From Escherichia phage RB32, in the sequence record NC_008515.1: 64,000 nt of DNA; one strand, 5' to 3'. The notes beneath the pieces were generated by a model that saw only the letters and a list, made by a program, of their open reading frames with translations, was not told the DNA's origin and did no database searches. The translations under genes and the position numbers were made by a program. The first letter of the stretch is position 1; every line of letters begins with the position of its first letter. Positions 27,824 through 40,845 of this stretch are shown piece by piece.

Positions 27824-27853
27824 AAATTATACCACAGTCAAGAGGAAAAGTAA
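27824..27853 (-). promoter_or_regulatory. T4-type early promoter (-35 GTTTAC, 18-nt spacer, -10 TATAAT) for regB
   Basis: Minus-strand GTTTACTTTTCCTCTTGACTGTGGTATAATTTTTC. Confidence 0.65.
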
Positions 27854-27857
27854 ACAA

Positions 27858-30004: not shown

Positions 30005-30478
30005 TTATTTGAATGATTTAACGTACTGAATAGAACCTTTACTATTCACGAAAGCGATTTTACCATTTTTATTATACATTGTAGCAGTACGTTGATAGCC
30101 ATAAGTTTGTTTACCAGATTGATAACCAACTAATGCGAAATTATCTTCACCCATTTTATTCTGTTTAGCGCGAATACGTTCATGACCATGTGCCATAAGA
30201 ACCTTAGCATCACCGGTTGCAATGGATCGACGAGTTTTTTCATCTTCAACTGTATTAACAAAGTCGTCAAATGAATCAAATTTAGCATGAGATTTATTAT
30301 ACAGTTTTCCATCTACTGCATAATTATATCCCTGTACATCCATCTCAACTTCTGTACCATCATCCAGTACAGCAGTGATTTTCTGTCCTTTTTTAAATTT
30401 CAAAAGATCAGTAAAAGATTCAGCAATAATTTGAGAATTAATAGCTGCTTCAGTAATAAATTCTTGATATGTTTTCAT
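30005..30478 (-). CDS. Internal head protein (IP family) with capsid-targeting N-terminus
   Basis: 157 aa; starts MKTYQEFITEAA, the T4 IP capsid-targeting sequence with the protease-type site after Glu; own early promoter upstream. Confidence 0.75.
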   Translation of the reverse strand: MKTYQEFITEAAINSQIIAESFTDLLKFKKGQKITAVLDDGTEVEMDVQGYNYAVDGKLYNKSHAKFDSFDDFVNTVEDEKTRRSIATGDAKVLMAHGHERIRAKQNKMGEDNFALVGYQSGKQTYGYQRTATMYNKNGKIAFVNSKGSIQYVKSFK

Positions 30479-30538
30479 GTGTATCCTTTAAATGTAAATA
30501 TTTTAATTAATAATTTATCTCTTCAAGTAACTGTGAAT

Positions 30539-30568
30539 ATACTATCACAATTCTAGAAGAAAGTAAAC
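30539..30568 (-). promoter_or_regulatory. T4-type early promoter (-35 GTTTAC, 18-nt spacer, -10 TAGTAT)
   Basis: Minus-strand GTTTACTTTCTTCTAGAATTGTGATAGTATATTCAC. Confidence 0.6.
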
Positions 30569-33537: not shown

Positions 33538-34071
33538 TTATATCATGCTACTTAAGAGATGTAAACTATTTTTAATTTTACAAATTCGTTCAGCTTCTTC
33601 AACAGCGGCAGTGATAATGCTTTTAGCTATAGGAGTACTAATATTAGTAGCTTTTACACTTAACACGATTTCTTTATCTTTACCAGGCCAACCCCACGAT
33701 TTTTCACCATGAGTGCCTTTAATTACAGCAGACACCTCAAGTGAGCATCCATTATCGCATGTTTTTACATTAACAACCCAAGTGTCACTTTTCTCAACCG
33801 GTTTATCCCAGTAAATATTAAGAATACGTGGGACATCAAATTTAGCAGGGCAAATCTTAACCGTAAGACCTTCGCTTTCTAGCCAATTAATAAGAGGGCG
33901 TTCATACATGCGGCGATGTGGGCTTTGAACTCGACAAGCTTTGTACCCATTGCTTGCGGCTTCACTAAGCTCTTCTAATACATGCTTTTGCATTATTGAT
34001 AAGATACCATCAAAAGATTTTTCGGAAGTTTCATTCAGTTCGGTATAAAGAGACATAACAGTTTTCCTCAA
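33538..34071 (-). CDS. Hypothetical protein
   Basis: 177-aa ORF. Confidence 0.6.
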   Translation of the reverse strand: MRKTVMSLYTELNETSEKSFDGILSIMQKHVLEELSEAASNGYKACRVQSPHRRMYERPLINWLESEGLTVKICPAKFDVPRILNIYWDKPVEKSDTWVVNVKTCDNGCSLEVSAVIKGTHGEKSWGWPGKDKEIVLSVKATNISTPIAKSIITAAVEEAERICKIKNSLHLLSSMI

Positions 34072-34112
34072 ATTATAGGCTCATAATATCTCAATCATGA
34101 GCCTATGTAAAC

Positions 34113-34617: not shown

Positions 34618-35091
34618 TTATTTGATTTGTTTAGCAGACCAAATGCGGTCTTTAATAATTTTTTGGATGTCTTCAACATACTCAAGAGAGTGAGCATGTG
34701 GGTTATCTTTGAAACTATAAGCACGAGCTAACTTTTGACCTTCAGTTTTGATTACTAAAAGCTCTTTAAGGATAGCTTCATATCTGGAGATAATTCCTTT
34801 AACGATATTTTTCTCTTGTGTGACTTTAGGATCTGCTTTAGGAGCAGGTTTACCTGAAGCCTTTGCAAAAGCAGCTCCAGTAGCAACTAAACTTTTCCAA
34901 GCCATACTAACTGCATTCCCTGTAAATCCTTCGGCTTTCATATCACGAGCAAATTGGAATCGTGATTCATCGGAAGCATCTTTATAGGAATATTTACCCG
35001 CGGCAATGGCTGCTTTTGCGACAGCTTGAATTTCGGTGCTAGATGCTTCATTTAACACCGCTTCATTTAAAAATTGAGCATATGATTTCAT
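34618..35091 (-). CDS. Internal head protein (IP family) with capsid-targeting N-terminus
   Basis: 157 aa; starts MKSYAQFLNEAV; Ala/Lys-rich; flanked by repeated terminator hairpins. Confidence 0.7.
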   Translation of the reverse strand: MKSYAQFLNEAVLNEASSTEIQAVAKAAIAAGKYSYKDASDESRFQFARDMKAEGFTGNAVSMAWKSLVATGAAFAKASGKPAPKADPKVTQEKNIVKGIISRYEAILKELLVIKTEGQKLARAYSFKDNPHAHSLEYVEDIQKIIKDRIWSAKQIK

Positions 35092-35141
35092 CTTATTTCC
35101 TGTTTTAATTCGGGGTTTTAATATACTTATTTATACTAAAA

Positions 35142-35481: not shown

Positions 35482-35558
<77 letters not shown>

Positions 35559-35561
35559 TAA

Positions 35562-36227
35562 TTAAAATTTCATTTTTCGACCTTTAAACCATCCTTCTGG
35601 AATTGGGTCAGTTTTCTTAATACGTTTAGAAACTTTTTCATCTAATGAATGAATCCACATCATACCAAATTGGGAATTCTTTTCGCCCTGTTGGTGTTTA
35701 TTTCTGGCGTGAGATTCTTTCATTTTATTAATAGTTTCAGGAGTATGATGCTTATTTAAAAATCTGCTATTATTTAAAAATTTTTCCCTGTATTCAGGAG
35801 TTGACCACAAGCGTTTAAATACATTTGAACCATGTTTACGATATTTTTCTTGAAGTAAAATATCATTTTTAAAACGTGACTTAAACGATTTAGCTCCTTT
35901 TAAACTAGCGTCTTTCTTCTGGTTTAGCATCCTAGGAATATTTATATGGTCCCATCCACCTTCACCACCAAGTTTTAAATTATACACATCTGGTCTATTT
36001 AAAAACTCTTCTGTGACAATATTTTTCTCGGCTTCAAGCATAGATTCTTTATCATCAAAATACTCTAATATTTCTTTAGAAAAATTTTCTATACCATATT
36101 TATCTTGGGCTCTTTTTAATAATTTACCAGAACCCATATATCCATCATCTAAATTTTCGGTAGAATGCACACCAATATAAATTTTATTATTAATTTTATT
36201 TGTTATTTTATAAGTGTAATGGAACAT
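35562..36227 (-). CDS. segB: GIY-YIG homing endonuclease SegB
   Basis: 221 aa; YTYKITNKINNKIYIGVHST..YMGSG GIY-YIG motifs; located inside the tRNA cluster as in T4. Confidence 0.85.
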   Translation of the reverse strand: MFHYTYKITNKINNKIYIGVHSTENLDDGYMGSGKLLKRAQDKYGIENFSKEILEYFDDKESMLEAEKNIVTEEFLNRPDVYNLKLGGEGGWDHINIPRMLNQKKDASLKGAKSFKSRFKNDILLQEKYRKHGSNVFKRLWSTPEYREKFLNNSRFLNKHHTPETINKMKESHARNKHQQGEKNSQFGMMWIHSLDEKVSKRIKKTDPIPEGWFKGRKMKF

Positions 36228-36268
36228 AAATATCTCCTATTTCTAAGAGTATTTATGTTCCCAAAATA

Positions 36269-36340
36269 TGGCCCTGGGTGGAATTGAACCACCATCTGGC
36301 GATTATGAGTCGCTTGCTTGAACCTTCCAGCTACAGGGCC
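36269..36340 (-). tRNA. tRNA-Ile: tRNA with CAU anticodon (Ile2-type or Met)
   Basis: Cloverleaf: acceptor GGCCCTG/CAGGGCC, anticodon loop CTCATAA, T arm GGTGG-TTCAATT-CCACC; T4 carries a CAU tRNA-Ile at this position. Confidence 0.7.
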
Positions 36341-36341
36341 T

Positions 36342-36417
36342 TGGTGCTGATTGACGGAATCGAACCGCCGACCTTCTCATTACAAGTGAGTTGCTCTACC
36401 TACTGAGCTAAATCAGC
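36342..36417 (-). tRNA. tRNA-Thr: tRNA-Thr (anticodon UGU)
   Basis: Acceptor GCTGATT/AATCAGC, D arm GCTC..GAGC, anticodon loop CTTGTAA, encoded ACCA. Confidence 0.8.
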
Positions 36418-36419
36418 AA

Positions 36420-36506
36420 CGGAGGCGATAGGATTTGAACCTATGAGTCGCCGGAGCGACTGCCGGTTTTCAAGACCGGTGCATTAAACCACTCTGCCAC
36501 GCCTCC
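36420..36506 (-). tRNA. tRNA-Ser: tRNA-Ser (anticodon UGA), long variable arm
   Basis: Acceptor GGAGGCG/CGCCTCC, anticodon stem-loop CCGGT-CTTGAAA-ACCGG, long extra arm, T loop TTCAAAT. Confidence 0.8.
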
Positions 36507-36508
36507 AG

Positions 36509-36582
36509 TCTCCATACAAGGATTTGAACCTTGGACCTCCTGATCCCAAATCAGGCGCTCTACCAAACTGAGCTACACGGAG
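36509..36582 (-). tRNA. tRNA-Pro: tRNA-Pro (anticodon UGG)
   Basis: Anticodon stem-loop CCTGA-TTTGGGA-TCAGG, D arm TAGCTCAGTTTGGTAGAGC, T arm CAAGG-TTCAAAT-CCTTG. Confidence 0.8.
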
Positions 36583-36592
36583 TAAATTAAAT

Positions 36593-36666
<74 letters not shown>

Positions 36667-36671
36667 AAATT

Positions 36672-36758
36672 TGGTGCGAGAAGTGGGACTCGAACCCACA
36701 AGGAAATCATTCCGCAGCATTTTAAGTGCTGTGCCTTTACCAATTTGACCATTCTCGC
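36672..36758 (-). tRNA. tRNA-Leu: tRNA-Leu (anticodon UAA), long variable arm
   Basis: Acceptor GCGAGAA/TTCTCGC, anticodon stem-loop CAGCA-CTTAAAA-TGCTG, encoded ACCA. Confidence 0.8.
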
Positions 36759-36759
36759 G

Positions 36760-36832
36760 CTGGGAATAAAGGACTCGAACCTTTGCATCTAGCAGTCAAA
36801 GTGCTATGCCTTACCAACTTGGCTAATTCCCA
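36760..36832 (-). tRNA. tRNA-Gln: tRNA-Gln (anticodon UUG)
   Basis: TGGGAATTAGCCAAGTTGGTAAGGCATAGCACTTTGACTGCTAGATGCAAAGGTTCGAGTCCTTTATTCCCA; matches T4 tRNA-Gln as recalled. Confidence 0.85.
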
Positions 36833-36918: not shown

Positions 36919-37434
36919 TTAAAGCAAATTAAACATTTTAACAGTCGGCAAAACAATTTCTTTTTCTATATAAGAGTATTTAACACTCTCAACTACACGC
37001 AGAAAATCATAATCATAATATTCAGAAGCACTGCCTAAAATATTAATAAGTCCTTCAAACACTTTATTACCATTCACAAAGAATAAATCAAATACACGTT
37101 CTTCATCTTCTTCGGATTTATTACCAAGGTCAACTTCTATATCAAAGACCTTTTTAATGAATTCTGGATAAAGTTGGTCTGAGAACAGTCCTTCAACCAA
37201 GTATTCATAAATAAAAAGCGATTGCTCGCTGAACAAGCCATTACCACAATAACGTTCAGCTTTAGTACTAGAATGTCTGCTTTTAAACTTCTTTAAAAGA
37301 TATTGAAATTGTAAGATTTCATGCTCTTCTACGCCAAACAGTGTTTTAGTTTTATAGTTGTCACCATCATTTTCCCAGGTAGTGACATCAATTACGTAAC
37401 CCTGCGGAATTGTAGTACCTAAACAAATATTCAT
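36919..37434 (-). CDS. Hypothetical acidic protein
   Basis: 171-aa ORF upstream of the tRNA cluster. Confidence 0.6.
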   Translation of the reverse strand: MNICLGTTIPQGYVIDVTTWENDGDNYKTKTLFGVEEHEILQFQYLLKKFKSRHSSTKAERYCGNGLFSEQSLFIYEYLVEGLFSDQLYPEFIKKVFDIEVDLGNKSEEDEERVFDLFFVNGNKVFEGLINILGSASEYYDYDFLRVVESVKYSYIEKEIVLPTVKMFNLL

Positions 37435-38137: not shown

Positions 38138-38323
38138 TTATTCACCTTTAGAAATTTTATCCATAACGATAGCAATTAAACCAATTAAAAATGCTACTAC
38201 AAGTGAAAACACATTTTCTGCTGTAGTTAATAATCCGCATATAAATCCAACAAACATTGAAAAACTAAAAGCAGAAGCAGAAATTGCAATAGCAACATTT
38301 CGAATTAATTCACAACGTTTCAT
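38138..38323 (-). CDS. Small membrane protein
   Basis: 61 aa; two hydrophobic helices; early promoter directly upstream. Confidence 0.55.
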   Translation of the reverse strand: MKRCELIRNVAIAISASAFSFSMFVGFICGLLTTAENVFSLVVAFLIGLIAIVMDKISKGE

Positions 38324-38351
38324 TTTATTCTCCTCAGTAGTTGATAGGGTA

Positions 38352-38381
38352 ATAGTATCACTACCCCATCTAAAAGTAAAC
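38352..38381 (-). promoter_or_regulatory. T4-type early promoter (-35 GTTTAC, 18-nt spacer, -10 TACTAT)
   Basis: Minus-strand GTTTACTTTTAGATGGGGTAGTGATACTATTACCCTATCAACTACTGAGGAGAATAAAATG. Confidence 0.6.
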
Positions 38382-38391
38382 GGTTTATAAA

Positions 38392-38700
38392 CTATTTTAT
38401 TCCGCGTGATGCAATTGTGTTCTGCCGTTTAGCACCAGTTTGTTTAAAATCATGATTGTCGATTTGATCGGTACGAGCAACTCCGAATGATGATTTGATT
38501 TTAGCTTTAGATCCTTTAGTTATAGAAATAAACATCTCGGAAGCCCCTTTCTTAAAGTCCGAGGCGATTACTTCAACGCCGTTCTTAGCAAGTGACTTCA
38601 GAATTGCCTCAGCATACTCATCGTCAAGACTCGCCTGAGTATTAATAACGAATGTCTTTGGCGCAGCCGCTTCATTGATAAATTCTTTAAATGTTTTCAT
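38392..38700 (-). CDS. Internal head protein (IP family) with capsid-targeting N-terminus
   Basis: 102 aa; starts MKTFKEFINEAAAP; own promoter. Confidence 0.7.
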   Translation of the reverse strand: MKTFKEFINEAAAPKTFVINTQASLDDEYAEAILKSLAKNGVEVIASDFKKGASEMFISITKGSKAKIKSSFGVARTDQIDNHDFKQTGAKRQNTIASRGIK

Positions 38701-38731
38701 TTTATTTTCCTAATTAATTTTTGATGAGATA

Positions 38732-38761
38732 ATAGTATCACTACCCTATTTAAAAGTAAAC
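38732..38761 (-). promoter_or_regulatory. T4-type early promoter (-35 GTTTAC, 18-nt spacer, -10 TACTAT)
   Basis: Minus-strand GTTTACTTTTAAATAGGGTAGTGATACTATTATCTCATC. Confidence 0.6.
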
Positions 38762-39034
38762 TCATTTTAAATAAATTGCGTATTTTTTATAACCCGCTGA
38801 CTCATGACGAAGACCCTTATCATTAGCAAAACGCTCAATGTTGTTAATTTGATTCTGATCAAGTTCAGAGATGTCAAACACGAAAAAGTTACGTTTGTTA
38901 CCAACTGTTATATAGTCAGTTAAATCAATATCATATAGGTAATTGATGTCAGCAATCAAAGTCTTGACAGCTTTGCTAATTTTTACTTTTTCGTTAAAAG
39001 CAGCTTCAGAAATAAATTCTTGATACGTTTTCAT
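38762..39034 (-). CDS. Internal head protein (IP family) with capsid-targeting N-terminus
   Basis: 90 aa; starts MKTYQEFISEAAF; own promoter. Confidence 0.7.
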   Translation of the reverse strand: MKTYQEFISEAAFNEKVKISKAVKTLIADINYLYDIDLTDYITVGNKRNFFVFDISELDQNQINNIERFANDKGLRHESAGYKKYAIYLK

Positions 39035-39062
39035 TTTATTCTCCTCAGTAGTTGATAGGGTA

Positions 39063-39092
39063 ATAGTATCACAGCTAAAACCCTATGTAAAC
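39063..39092 (-). promoter_or_regulatory. T4-type early promoter (-35 GTTTAC, 18-nt spacer, -10 TACTAT)
   Basis: Minus-strand GTTTACATAGGGTTTTAGCTGTGATACTATTACCCTATCAACTACTGAGGAG. Confidence 0.6.
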
Positions 39093-39104
39093 AACTTTGT
39101 GAAA

Positions 39105-39362
39105 TTACTTTAAATCTTCTAATCGTTTCTTCATCTTAGAACCATTTTTAGCGATTTCTCCTGCATCGGAGCATAATGCTAAAAGCGCTTTAACTTTAGT
39201 TTGGTCTCCTTTAAAAGATGAAGGATCGACTGCAGCAGCAAGTTCTTTAATACGAGAGAAAAGACGCTCAGCTTCAGCTAAAGCCATTCCAAGCTTTACT
39301 TCCATACCGTGGGAAGATTCAGTGATAGTAGTTTTTGTAGCAAACTCTTTGAAAGTTTTCAT
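39105..39362 (-). CDS. Internal head protein (IP family) with capsid-targeting-like N-terminus
   Basis: 85 aa; starts MKTFKEFATKTTITE; own promoter. Confidence 0.65.
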   Translation of the reverse strand: MKTFKEFATKTTITESSHGMEVKLGMALAEAERLFSRIKELAAAVDPSSFKGDQTKVKALLALCSDAGEIAKNGSKMKKRLEDLK

Positions 39363-39393
39363 TTTATTTTCCTAATTAATTTTGATGAGGTAA

Positions 39394-39423
39394 TAGTATC
39401 ACTACCTCATCAGCATGTAAACA
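39394..39423 (-). promoter_or_regulatory. T4-type early promoter (-35 GTTTAC, 18-nt spacer, -10 TACTAT)
   Basis: Minus-strand GTTTACATGCTGATGAGGTAGTGATACTATTACCTCATC. Confidence 0.6.
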
Positions 39424-39434
39424 ACTTTGTGAAA

Positions 39435-40119
<685 letters not shown>

Positions 40120-40120
<1 letters not shown>

Positions 40121-40845
40121 TATAGTACCTTTAGTGTATTTTTAATTTTAGAAAAAAGTTCTTCAAGAGAACCATCGTTTGTAATTACTAAATCGCCATC
40201 ACGAATTGGCAATCCAGCTTCTGTAATATGTGTATCATTGGATTTTTGACCAGGACGAACTACATGAATTACTGTAGCACCCATCGCCCTAGCCGCATCC
40301 ATTTCATGATCTTGACGGGTATCAGGAACGATATAATAATCATAACCTGAGTTAAATTTATCAAGATAATCTAAAGCAAATAATTTTACCCAGTACATGC
40401 GGTCGAAGTTATTAACAATCAAATCCGTACCTAGGGCTTGCATCAGACGACGGACTGACCATTGATCTTCAATATTATTTATAACGTCAATAATCTTGTT
40501 AAATGCTACGGAATTAACTGATTCTTTTCCTTCGTCATCAAAAACAAACACACCTTTAATTGGGCTTTTACCATTAAGATAGCAAAATGCTTGTTCCATA
40601 ATCGTGATTACTTCTAATTTAGTCAGATTTAAATTAGTCTCACGATCATAGTCAATTCCTTCAAACTCTTTACGAGTTAAGCAAGGATAGTCAGTGTTTG
40701 CTGCAAATACTCCCCATGCATAAGCCAATGCATCCTTAATAGGACCAGCAAGTTGGTATTTAACTGCAGAATAATTGCTCATGATAAAATCAGCAGTAGT
40801 ATCTTTTCCACTACGCTTTACACCGCTTAAAAAGATTAGTTTCAT
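40120..40845 (-). CDS. 1: Deoxynucleoside monophosphate kinase gp1
   Basis: 241 aa from MKLIFLSGVKRSGKDT (P-loop), GAGGAG Shine-Dalgarno; matches T4 gp1 as recalled; track start 40884 is an upstream in-frame Met. Confidence 0.93.

Follow-up and report, generated by a model that had tools for sequence, protein, structure and literature searches.

What do three small genes contribute to a T4-like phage when they stand head to tail, begin with almost the same residues and continue into unrelated bodies? The question is raised by the open reading frames which a preliminary description of this DNA placed at positions 38392-38700, 38762-39034 and 39105-39362 of the window, that is, of the whole stretch of 64,000 nucleotides that was analysed. 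All three are there; they lie on the minus strand and encode 102, 90 and 85 aa. The window is 100% identical to Enterobacteria phage RB33 (KM607001.1), in whose GenBank annotation the three genes are named Ip7, Ip9 and Ip5. Each protein matches a separate PHROG family of the type 'internal head protein' from end to end (Ip7, PHROG 2667; Ip9, PHROG 7673; Ip5, PHROG 3499; E = 2e-41 to 4e-55). Upstream the locus is anchored by the gene annotated as 57B (39435..39890, minus strand), a member of the Acb1 anti-CBASS family (Pfam PF23474 Acb1, E = 2.6e-60) which is present in all related loci compared; the shared flank begins at the last codons of 57B (..DDLK*). The usual downstream anchor, found in most related loci, is the annotated gene tRNA.4 (38138..38323, minus strand; PHROG 1692), which encodes a 61-aa predicted membrane protein without a targeting sequence. 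This is very probably the polymorphic ipI-type internal-protein (IP) locus between 57B and tRNA.4, with Ip5, Ip9 and Ip7 as three single-gene cassettes. The preliminary description had likewise proposed capsid-targeted proteins at a hyperplastic ipI-type locus which form a swappable set, and this agrees with the published view, the GenBank names, the RB15 record of 1994 and our comparison of 44 loci.

The three-cassette arrangement is already known, having been sequenced and given its gene names in 1994. The RB15 record Z35082.1 ('DNA for Ip5, Ip9, Ip7, Ip8') has the same genes in the same order between the same flanks, 57B and tRNA.4, and is 98% identical to the RB33 locus over 1103 nt. The Ip5, Ip9 and Ip7 genes are 98-100% identical to their RB15 counterparts; the Ip5 protein is 100% identical to that of RB15 and Ip9 is 98% identical (Q38376). 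RB15 differs by an extra Ip8 cassette which RB33 does not have, and the junction falls within the promoter module upstream of tRNA.4.

In T4, a protein is targeted to the capsid by its first ~10 residues, of which position 4 is aromatic and position 7 is phenylalanine, and the protease gp21 cuts after (L/I)-x-E (PMC9026906). The T4-type targeting start claimed for each of the three genes is indeed there. Ip7 (38392..38700, minus strand; start MKTFKEFINEAA) begins with MKTFKEFINE10|A, Ip9 (38762..39034, minus strand; start MKTYQEFISEAA) with MKTYQEFISE10|A and Ip5 (39105..39362, minus strand; start MKTFKEFATKTT) with MKTFKEF followed by a predicted protease site at ITE15|S. Position 4 is thus F or Y and position 7 is F in all three proteins, and in our motif check the I-x-E prohead-protease motif ends at residue 10 in Ip7 (INE), 10 in Ip9 (ISE) and 15 in Ip5 (ITE). 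Cleavage there would leave mature forms of 92 aa with a pI of 9.7 (Ip7), 80 aa with a pI of 8.2 (Ip9) and 70 aa with a pI of 9.2 (Ip5). Alleles of Ip5, Ip7 and Ip9 from different phages all keep residues 4 and 7 and the I-x-E sites. Of the two polymorphic IP loci, one between 57B and tRNA.4 and the other on the e-to-tRNA side, the first holds all three genes. The degenerate codon pattern for MKT(Y/F)(Q/K)EF has four exact matches in the window, namely Ip5, Ip7, Ip9 and the gene at 30005-30478; with up to three mismatches there are 6 matches against 0.44 expected, a number reached in 0 of 100 shuffles. Our literature search for Ip5, Ip7 and Ip9 returned unrelated papers only, chiefly on inositol phosphates, and no report on virion presence, processing or injection of these proteins.

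Behind the targeting peptide the bodies are mutually unrelated, as had been claimed. No pair scores better than E = 0.12 in BLASTP after residue 15, and the proteins belong to three different PHROG families. A recent tandem duplication of the three genes is rejected, there being no detectable similarity among the bodies. The AlphaFold2 model of Ip7 (mean pLDDT 64) shows a beta-alpha-beta-beta core and a disordered basic, Lys/Arg-rich C-terminal tail; the pLDDT is about 72-85 for residues 11-60 and below 50 for residues 76-102. Ip9 is predicted to adopt an alpha/beta fold (mean pLDDT 76). Foldseek searches of the PDB with the two models reached E = 0.058 at best for Ip7, whose core looks like a generic ACT/RRM-like beta-alpha-beta-beta fold, and E = 0.044 at best for Ip9, a generic alpha/beta fold in two layers. 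Neither model passes E = 0.001 or provides a functional lead. In BFVD, Ip9 matches one viral protein, of 535 aa and without a name (E = 3e-6), and no annotated one.

Every one of the three genes is preceded by a module of the form GTTTAC-N18-TACTAT with a leader that ends in AATAAAATG. In the Ip5 module (39363..39422, minus strand) the -35 box GTTTAC lies at 39422-39417, the -10 box TACTAT at 39398-39393 and the leader reads TTAATTAGGAAAATAAA. In the Ip9 module (39035..39092, minus strand) the boxes lie at 39092-39087 and 39068-39063 and the leader is CAACTACTGAGGAGAATAAA with GGAG. The Ip7 module (38701..38761, minus strand; -35 box 38761-38756, -10 box 38737-38732) is a hybrid whose 5' half resembles the tRNA.4 module and whose 3' half resembles the Ip5 module. 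That each gene has an early promoter module of its own therefore holds, but the number is four and not three, as a fourth copy (38324..38381, minus strand) drives the non-IP gene tRNA.4. The modules had also been called near-identical. They are similar in the shared boxes and the end of the leader, but they are mosaics of 69-86% pairwise identity over the 61-64 nt from the -35 box to the ATG. The 3' halves of the tRNA.4 and Ip9 modules are identical at 31 of 31 positions, and all four combinations of two 5' halves with two 3' halves are present among the four RB33 modules. The leader CTACTGAGGAGAATAAAATG, which had been quoted for the whole set, is limited to Ip9 and tRNA.4, whereas Ip5 and Ip7 carry TTAATTAGGAAAATAAAATG.

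Part of this resemblance is simply that of a T4-type early promoter, since the general early-promoter consensus of this phage, GTTTAC-N14-GTGATACTAT, which matches all four modules exactly, has 15 matches in the window with up to three mismatches, every one of them on the minus strand, against an expectation of 0.88. Promoter-like sites in a generic sigma-70 scan were no more frequent than in shuffles (16 against 16.5); it is the phage-specific consensus alone that carries information. The locus itself is free of late-promoter motifs, the nearest one upstream being TATAAATA at 40476-40483. The protein needed at prohead assembly would be supplied by early synthesis or by late read-through.

The modules contain a further element. 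In the Ip5 module an inverted repeat, GATGAGGTA/TACCTCATC, stands on both sides of the -10 box and as RNA would fold into a hairpin of -17.4 kcal/mol (z = -6.1). Similar hairpins are predicted for the Ip9 module (ATAGGGT...ACCCTAT; -12.1 kcal/mol, z = -3.5) and the tRNA.4 module (-16.1 kcal/mol, z = -4.0); in the Ip7 module the inverted repeat is disrupted and the fold is weak (-4.4 kcal/mol, z = -0.6). The stem-loop encloses the -10 box, and no U-run follows the stem. Rfam gave nothing relevant over the locus. Across phages the arms vary as GGGTA/TACCC, GAGGTA/TACCTC, GGGCT/AGCCC and GGGTT/AACCC, which is suggestive of a hairpin with covarying arms. It is only suggestive because pair counting in a mixed set of 41 modules is weak (paired cells 65.9% against 65.2% in shuffles) and because the permutation test for an association of left and right arms (0 of 5000) is inflated by the relatedness of the sequences. 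Double-sided changes in the 41 modules number 16 against 11 in shuffles, the observed value being reached in 16 of 500 shuffles, and the true hairpin register is clearly better than slid registers.

How the set of genes came about is best seen by comparison with other phages. The check proposed in the preliminary description, a comparison with the IP repertoires of other T-even phages, reveals a variable set of cassettes. In 44 related loci we find 0-5 cassettes between 57B and tRNA.4, drawn from about 15 body families and in varying order. RB33 has Ip5-Ip9-Ip7, T2 has Ip5-Ip7, G4498 has Ip9-Ip7-Ip8, KIT06 has IPI-Ip9-Ip7 and an Ip8 remnant, L013 has Ip7-Ip9, and L015 has none. Cassettes have thus been gained, lost, replaced and reordered, with the junctions in the shared module; against T2, RB15, G4498, SP1, KIT06 and R5505, every break of collinearity falls in the interval that opens at the 3' end of the preceding gene and closes near codon 12 of the open reading frame. 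Bodies within each family are 75-100% identical with many invariant columns, and alleles of one body carry different variants of the targeting sequence. These comparisons show a stretch of ~100 nt common to all cassettes. It starts in the final codons and the stop of the gene before, takes in both promoter boxes and the leader, and reaches into the codons of the targeting sequence. Most likely it serves as portable homology, and recombination inside it adds, deletes, replaces and reorders cassettes between phages.

As judged from the sequences, the cassette pattern agrees with a shuffling model from the literature (Repoila 1994; PeSL papers). The model is said to have been put forward at the IP locus by Repoila, Tetart, Bouet and Krisch in 1994 in EMBO J 13:4181. 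The PeSL (promoter-early stem-loop) papers describe shuffling mediated by promoter modules in T4-like phages and credit Repoila 1994 for the IP locus, to which the authors trace the idea (Arbiol 2010, PMC2839356; Comeau 2014, PMC4122927). PeSL cassettes, as described there, likewise have repeated early promoter and Shine-Dalgarno modules between small accessory open reading frames, and the indel and replacement junctions fall in the module as in RB33, where four modules lie in 1.1 kb and six relatives were compared. Two differences are apparent: the PeSL stem-loop is described as lying just upstream of the promoter, whereas in RB33 the -10 box lies within the inverted repeat, and the homology shared by the RB33 cassettes reaches into coding sequence, namely the targeting-sequence codons. 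For PeSL mini-circles, detection by inverse PCR is described (PMC2839356).

The best-studied relative is T4. T4 ipI occupies the same locus, with an early-promoter module of the same kind, and IPI takes the position of Ip5 in KIT06 and R5505. Its mature product IPI* is an inhibitor of the GmrS/GmrD type IV restriction enzyme. The body of IPI* is unrelated to those of Ip5, Ip7 and Ip9, which fall into clusters separate from it; no IPI* entry is among the PDB sequence and fold matches listed. T4 IPII and IPIII (Ip2 and Ip3) likewise carry a 10-residue tag, MKTYQEFI.E, followed by an unrelated small basic body. They are injected and have a narrow target specificity, inhibiting GmrSD-ECOR21 and GmrSD-ECOR17 (PMC12373910, PMC9026906). 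Each of T4 Ip1, Ip2 and Ip3 inhibits a distinct GmrSD enzyme (PMC12373910), and the T-even internal proteins have been described as a diverse defence-countering set with only the targeting sequence in common (PMC3012670).

We suggest that the three cassettes work in the following way. Each consists, as the sequence shows, of a sigma-70/T4-early-type promoter, a Shine-Dalgarno leader and an open reading frame. By analogy with T4 IPIII and IPI genetics (PMC9026906), the first ~10 residues would target the protein into the scaffolding core of the prohead. There gp21 would cut after (I/L)-x-E, that is after E10 in Ip7 and Ip9 and after E15 in Ip5; the longer propeptide of Ip5 is similar to that of IPI with its 19 residues and of the same type (MKTFKEFTSTT...ITE|A in IPI, MKTFKEFATKTTITE|S in Ip5). 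The basic mature proteins of 70-92 aa would be kept in the head with the DNA and ejected into the host alongside it, and would therefore act before any phage gene expression. By analogy, each protein might block one particular host nuclease or defence protein, most probably a GmrSD-family type IV restriction enzyme which attacks glucosyl-hmC DNA, as for T4 Ip1, Ip2 and Ip3. Anti-restriction is by analogy the likeliest role for Ip5, Ip7 and Ip9. Sequence, family, defence-system and fold searches found no resemblance to IPI* or to another anti-defence protein that has been characterised: Pfam gave no match above threshold and PADLOC no match for the three proteins, and a PDB sequence search gave nothing below E = 0.02. 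This is no argument against such a function, because the known inhibitors are themselves mutually unrelated.

The body of Ip9 also occurs outside the T-even setting. A 72-aa gene in the siphovirus JSSK01 (Kagunavirus) encodes it without the targeting tag (50% identity, E = 2e-28), and in the Kuttervirus phage allotria it forms the C-terminal domain of a 964-aa protein. The Ip9 body is also found in phages without glucosyl-hmC DNA, which weakens a GmrSD-specific claim for Ip9. If Ip9 is a free-standing effector, the T-even phages would have made an injected protein out of the product of an ordinary early accessory gene, and the target of Ip9 would probably have nothing to do with GmrSD or glucosyl-hmC DNA. 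The tag-less Ip9 body and the hairpin at the -10 box are the details which may go beyond what is published. We put forward only tentatively, and consider it doubtful as a whole, that the hairpin with the -10 box in its loop is a recombination hotspot or the 3'-end or terminator of the upstream cassette, and that Ip9 is a free-standing effector domain converted to an injected one by a 10-residue tag.

These occurrences of Ip9 also bear on a possible, though rather unlikely, alternative for the whole set, in which the proteins are packaged and injected but are directed at other host defences or host functions and not at GmrSD-type enzymes. Head-packaged proteins can act on such functions: Alt modifies RNA polymerase. 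The neighbourhood would fit as well, as the locus adjoins the anti-CBASS gene Acb1/57B. T2 carries Ip5 and Ip7 and is yet restricted by GmrSD-ECOR21 and GmrSD-ECOR17 (PMC12373910), and therefore these two enzymes are probably not the targets of Ip5 and Ip7. Failure against two variants reveals little, however, about the remaining members of a very diverse family, and Ip1, Ip2 and Ip3, which are all the T-even internal proteins with known targets, inhibit members of it (PMC12373910). Furthermore, the title of one paper terms GmrSD/BrxU enzymes promiscuous (PMC13390438).

Two other explanations do without an injected inhibitor. The proteins might be chiefly structural or charge-neutralising components of the head interior which aid condensation, packaging or ejection of the DNA, with no specific host target and with a diversity that reflects weak constraint and not an arms race. 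The predicted mature forms are all basic (pI 8.2-9.7), Ip7 has its Lys/Arg-rich tail, and in T4 lysines of the internal proteins touch DNA phosphates and IPIII mutants have head-assembly defects (PMC3012670, PMC9026906). We nevertheless regard this as quite unlikely. The T4 proteins are non-essential or semi-essential (PMC9026906), some phages, such as L015, have no cassette here at all, the identity and the invariant columns within the body families argue for a specific folded function, and Ip9 and the Ip7 core are predicted to be compact. Finally, the MKT(Y/F)(Q/K)EF start could be a relic of recombination which no longer targets, on what would be ordinary early cytoplasmic proteins. Early-type promoters alone directly precede the genes in a locus free of the late-promoter motif, the same module drives tRNA.4, and other phages have tag-less Ip9-like genes. 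Against this, residues 4 and 7 and the predicted cleavage sites are kept in every allele, and tRNA.4 starts with MKRCEL... behind the same promoter and leader, so that the tag is not an automatic by-product of the module. Ten residues of the IPIII tag are enough to package foreign proteins (PMC9026906). We consider a relic highly improbable and retain the reading of packaged, injected proteins with anti-restriction as their likeliest role.

The locus is then a textbook case of the changeable protein kit of T4-like phages which enters the host with the DNA, ahead of gene expression, and the window leaves the picture of the T-even internal proteins as it was. What it offers in practice is a clean candidate list for defence-system screens, with the mature N-termini predicted. 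Since all three T4 internal proteins block different GmrSD enzymes, as has been known since 2025, each of the uncharacterised families (Ip4, Ip5, Ip7, Ip9, RB33_134 and others) supplies such screens with a ready candidate inhibitor.

Two of these families come from elsewhere in the window, where the preliminary description had noted two further IP-type genes. In T4, IPII and IPIII sit in the other IP locus on the e-to-tRNA side; RB33 has Ip4 and RB33_134 there. The gene at 30005..30478 (minus strand), which adjoins the lysozyme gene e, is indeed annotated as Ip4. Its product starts with MKTYQEFITE10|A and falls into PHROG 3155 ('internal virion protein') and Pfam DUF7412 (E = 6e-96). The gene's own early promoter lies at 30539-30568, with a different, longer leader. 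For the gene at 34618..35091 (minus strand; RB33_134, 157 aa) the claim stands as regards the start, which is targeting-like (MKSYAQFLNE10|A; MKSYAQFLNEA...), but the early module is absent and the late-promoter motif TATAAATA is found instead at 35128-35135, behind a terminator-like hairpin. RB33_134 is annotated as hypothetical only and belongs to PHROG 2280, a family of unknown function; its homologues occur in 510 phage records and are called 'hypothetical protein' in all 14 of the 14 entries listed.

The three internal-protein (IP) genes of RB33, as the phage of the window is called here, lie between 57B and tRNA.4. A 3.3-kb query around them has 100% identity to KM607001.1 (Enterobacteria phage RB33), and subtracting 32119 from a record position gives the window position. 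In gene order and all on the minus strand we find 57B (39435-39890), Ip5 (39105-39362, 85 aa), Ip9 (38762-39034, 90 aa), Ip7 (38392-38700, 102 aa) and tRNA.4 (38138-38323), a membrane ORF of 61 aa; further downstream come tRNA.3, tRNA.2, an unnamed ORF at 36919-37434 and then eight clustered tRNA genes. The RB33 GenBank notes give the names Ip5, Ip9 and Ip7. The same three genes occur in the same order in Z35082.1 (1,448 bp, "Bacteriophage RB15 DNA for Ip5, Ip9, Ip7, Ip8"), which is 98% identical to the RB33 locus over 1,103 nt and has an extra cassette, Ip8, before tRNA.4. From the gene names, we take this entry to belong to a 1994 study on T-even genome polymorphism. The RB33 finding therefore re-discovers a locus already published and named, and the idea of cassette shuffling, like the locus and its gene names, has been public since 1994. 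What residual interest there is concerns the targets of the three proteins and two modest side observations, a hairpin around the -10 box and the occurrence of the Ip9 domain elsewhere.

Directly upstream of the cassettes, 57B is a full-length member of the Acb1 anti-CBASS family (Pfam PF23474, E = 2.6e-60), labeled hypothetical in the RB33 record and "RNA ligase" in PHROGs and some records. Thus, the IP locus is part of a counter-defence neighbourhood. Within the RB33 tRNA cluster (35482-36832) lies the homing endonuclease gene segB (about 35562-36227). T2 carries another ORF at this place, and its set of tRNAs differs as well (Asn and Tyr present, Thr absent), so that the tRNA region too is polymorphic between close relatives.

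A degenerate DNA pattern for the start MKT(Y/F)(Q/K)EF fits the window exactly at four places (Ip5, Ip9, Ip7 and Ip4), and with up to three mismatches six matches are found versus 0.44 expected; the N-termini of Ip7, Ip9 and Ip5 are as quoted in the preliminary description. In T4 IPIII the first ten residues are enough for packaging, residues 4 and 7 being most important for targeting and residues 8 and 10 important for processing, and the prohead protease gp21 cleaves after (L/I)-x-E (PMC9026906). In Ip5, Ip7 and Ip9 alike, residue 4 is F or Y and residue 7 is F. An I-x-E ends at residue 10 in Ip7 and Ip9 but not in Ip5, where an I-T-E ends at residue 15 instead; in this Ip5 mirrors IPI, whose start is likewise MKTFKEF(T/A) and whose I-T-E is at residue 19. 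From these motifs we infer that the three proteins would be targeted to the capsid and processed, and the predicted mature forms have 92 aa and pI 9.7 (Ip7), 80 aa and pI 8.2 (Ip9) and 70 aa and pI 9.2 (Ip5). We found no proteomic evidence for Ip5, Ip7 or Ip9 in the literature.

Upstream of each of the three genes stand GTTTAC-N18-TACTAT and a leader that ends in AATAAAATG, which bears out that every cassette has a similar promoter/leader module. The modules are, however, not near-identical as had been claimed, and there are four of them instead of three: 38701-38761 (Ip7), 39035-39092 (Ip9), 39363-39422 (Ip5) and 38324-38381, all on the minus strand. The last one drives tRNA.4, whose product begins with MKRCEL and thus without a targeting sequence. 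The four modules are 61-64 nt long with pairwise identities of 69-86%, and they are mosaics. Ip7 and tRNA.4 share the 5' half GTTTACTTTTA(A/G)AT(A/G)GGGTA, and Ip5 and Ip9 share one starting TAATTTCACAAAGTTGTTTACAT...; the 3' half is CAACTACTGAGGAGAATAAAATG in Ip9 and tRNA.4 (31/31 identical) and CAAAATTAATTAGGAAAATAAAATG in Ip5 and Ip7. All four combinations of the two 5' and two 3' halves are present, which is what crossovers within the common GTGATACTAT core would produce. This core, searched as GTTTAC-N14-GTGATACTAT, has 15 matches with up to three mismatches in the window, all on the minus strand, versus 0.88 expected; it is simply the early-promoter consensus of this phage. The Ip9/tRNA.4 3' half has GGAG in its Shine-Dalgarno region and the Ip5/Ip7 3' half does not. 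Since the T4 nuclease RegB cuts at GGAG, the two mRNA types could differ in early decay.

In three of the four modules a strong inverted repeat holds the -10 box in its loop (38338-38381, 39049-39092 and 39379-39422, minus strand), with RNA folding energies of -16.1, -12.1 and -17.4 kcal/mol and z-scores from -3.5 to -6.1. In the Ip7 module, a recombinant hybrid, the arms are mismatched and there is no strong hairpin. In 41 distinct modules taken from the 44 loci compared, a change in one arm goes with a change in the other (GGGTA/TACCC, GAGGTA/TACCTC, GGGCT/AGCCC, GGGTT/AACCC). Permuting the right arms among these related sequences reached the observed pairing in 0 of 5000 trials; a formal count of paired positions over the mixed modules, again related sequences, gives a weak signal. 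The same feature is seen at some other early promoters of the window, at 34069-34112 (34083), 30525-30568 (30539) and 27826-27855. No U-run follows the hairpin, so it is not a classic terminator. In geometry it appears to differ from the promoter-early stem-loop (PeSL) modules, which as published have their stem-loop upstream of the promoter (PMC2839356, PMC4122927), whereas the RB33 repeat encloses the -10 box.

We compared the 57B-tRNA.4 interval of RB33, T2, RB15, five other GenBank phages and 36 IMG/VR loci. These 44 loci have 0 to 5 cassettes from about 15 body families, varying in content and order, in agreement with the proposed hyperplastic locus with a swappable set of genes. RB33 has Ip5-Ip9-Ip7, RB15 Ip5-Ip9-Ip7-Ip8, T2 Ip5-Ip7, G4498 Ip9-Ip7-Ip8, SP1 Ip9-Ip7, KIT06 IPI-Ip9-Ip7 plus an Ip8 remnant, R5505 IPI and another family, locus L013 Ip7-Ip9 and locus L015 none. 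Only three other records (VEc74, RB15 and KIT06) cover 80% or more of the RB33 arrangement. The observation of the cassette array is real and far beyond chance. Exchange of cassettes at IP loci was reportedly described in the 1994 study. It has since been generalised as PeSL-mediated shuffling (PMC2839356, PMC4122927), and the proposed interpretation agrees with this literature.

Between RB33 and six relatives all breaks of collinearity fall between the 3'-terminal codons of the preceding gene and about codon 12 of the ORF. Ip9 starts with MKTYQEFISEAA in RB33 versus MKTFKEFINEAT in SP1 and KIT06, and Ip7 with MKTFKEFINEAA in RB33 versus MKTYQEFINEAA in KIT06; the sequences thus indicate that the targeting codons themselves are exchanged between phages. 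The ends of 57B (DDLK*, 39435-39450) and Ip5 (EDLK*, 39105-39120) are both followed by an identical TAATTTCACAAAGTTGTTTACAT, so that the shared flank (81% identity over 69 nt) starts within the upstream coding sequence. This flank looks like the footprint of an Ip5 cassette insertion. Ip5-like genes of 47-54% identity adjoin the lysozyme gene e in other T4-like phages (VR20, AV115, HX01 and others), at the second IP locus, which indicates cassette movement between the two loci; in RB33 this second IP locus is occupied by Ip4.

The Ip8 remnant of KIT06 (42 aa, MKTYQKFIAEAKRHEDELP...; locus L007, 772-900 as annotated, 2047-2175 as oriented) has a complete promoter module in front and another module between it and tRNA.4; it is a decaying cassette left behind. 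The 77-aa "ip7" of Escherichia phage OLB35 (P0014) has no targeting sequence and is an in-frame chimera of an Ip7 middle segment (YA.AIL..SLAKNGVEV...KIKSSF) and the last 32 residues of an Ip9 (DENQFNNIQRFANDKGLRHE...IYLK); it is either a genuine recombinant or an artefact of assembly or annotation.

The three bodies are mutually unrelated, as had been noted: the best pairwise BLASTP match past residue 15 has E = 0.12, and each protein belongs to a different PHROG family, all annotated "internal head protein". Searches with Ip5, Ip7 and Ip9 gave no match above threshold in Pfam, none in PADLOC and none below E = 0.02 in the PDB. Among 5.8 billion clusters, Ip7 has just 14 homologues and Ip9 just 17, and these are close. 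AlphaFold2 models Ip7 as a moderately confident beta-alpha-beta-beta core with a disordered basic tail (mean pLDDT 64) and Ip9 as a compact alpha/beta domain (mean pLDDT 76); Foldseek with both models found no PDB match at E = 0.001 or better. No biochemical function can be read from the sequences, so that the proposed role as inhibitors of host nucleases or defence systems is an argument by analogy. IPI* is an inhibitor of GmrS/GmrD (PMC12373910, PMC3012670), Ip2 and Ip3 block two further enzymes of the GmrSD type without cross-protection, and many other Ips are uncharacterised according to the authors (PMC12373910). T2 carries Ip5 and Ip7, yet it is restricted by GmrSD-ECOR21 and GmrSD-ECOR17 (PMC12373910); these two enzymes are thus probably not the targets of Ip5 and Ip7.

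Outside T4-like phages the Ip9 body is an autonomous, free-standing domain. Residues 19-90 (38762-38980) are 50% identical (E = 2e-28) to a 72-aa gene product of the Kagunavirus siphophage JSSK01, whose gene (locus L046, 2507-2725) has no targeting sequence and stands at the head of a cluster of small ORFs. In the Kuttervirus phage allotria the domain forms the C-terminus of a 964-aa protein (locus L048, 5794-8688; PHROG 7673, E = 3e-8) adjoining genes annotated as structural. An exhaustive HMMER search retrieved only 8 representative clusters among 1.84 billion proteins, some with divergent targeting sequences (MKFNEFLTE, MKSFKEYLTE) and some with none.

Two further IP-type genes had been proposed. 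The one at 30005-30478 is Ip4 (Pfam DUF7412, PHROG "internal virion protein"), with its own early promoter and a longer leader different from that of the Ip5, Ip9 and Ip7 modules. The other, RB33_134 (34618-35091, minus strand, 157 aa), does have a start, MKSYAQFLNE/A, that resembles a targeting sequence followed by an L-x-E site, but no early module precedes it. Instead a late-promoter motif TATAAATA lies at 35128-35135, about 35 nt upstream of the ATG, with a terminator-like hairpin upstream of the motif. Homologues occur in 510 phage records and are called "hypothetical protein" in 14 of 14 among the matches listed. RB33_134 is plausibly an unnamed internal protein at the ipII/ipIII position.
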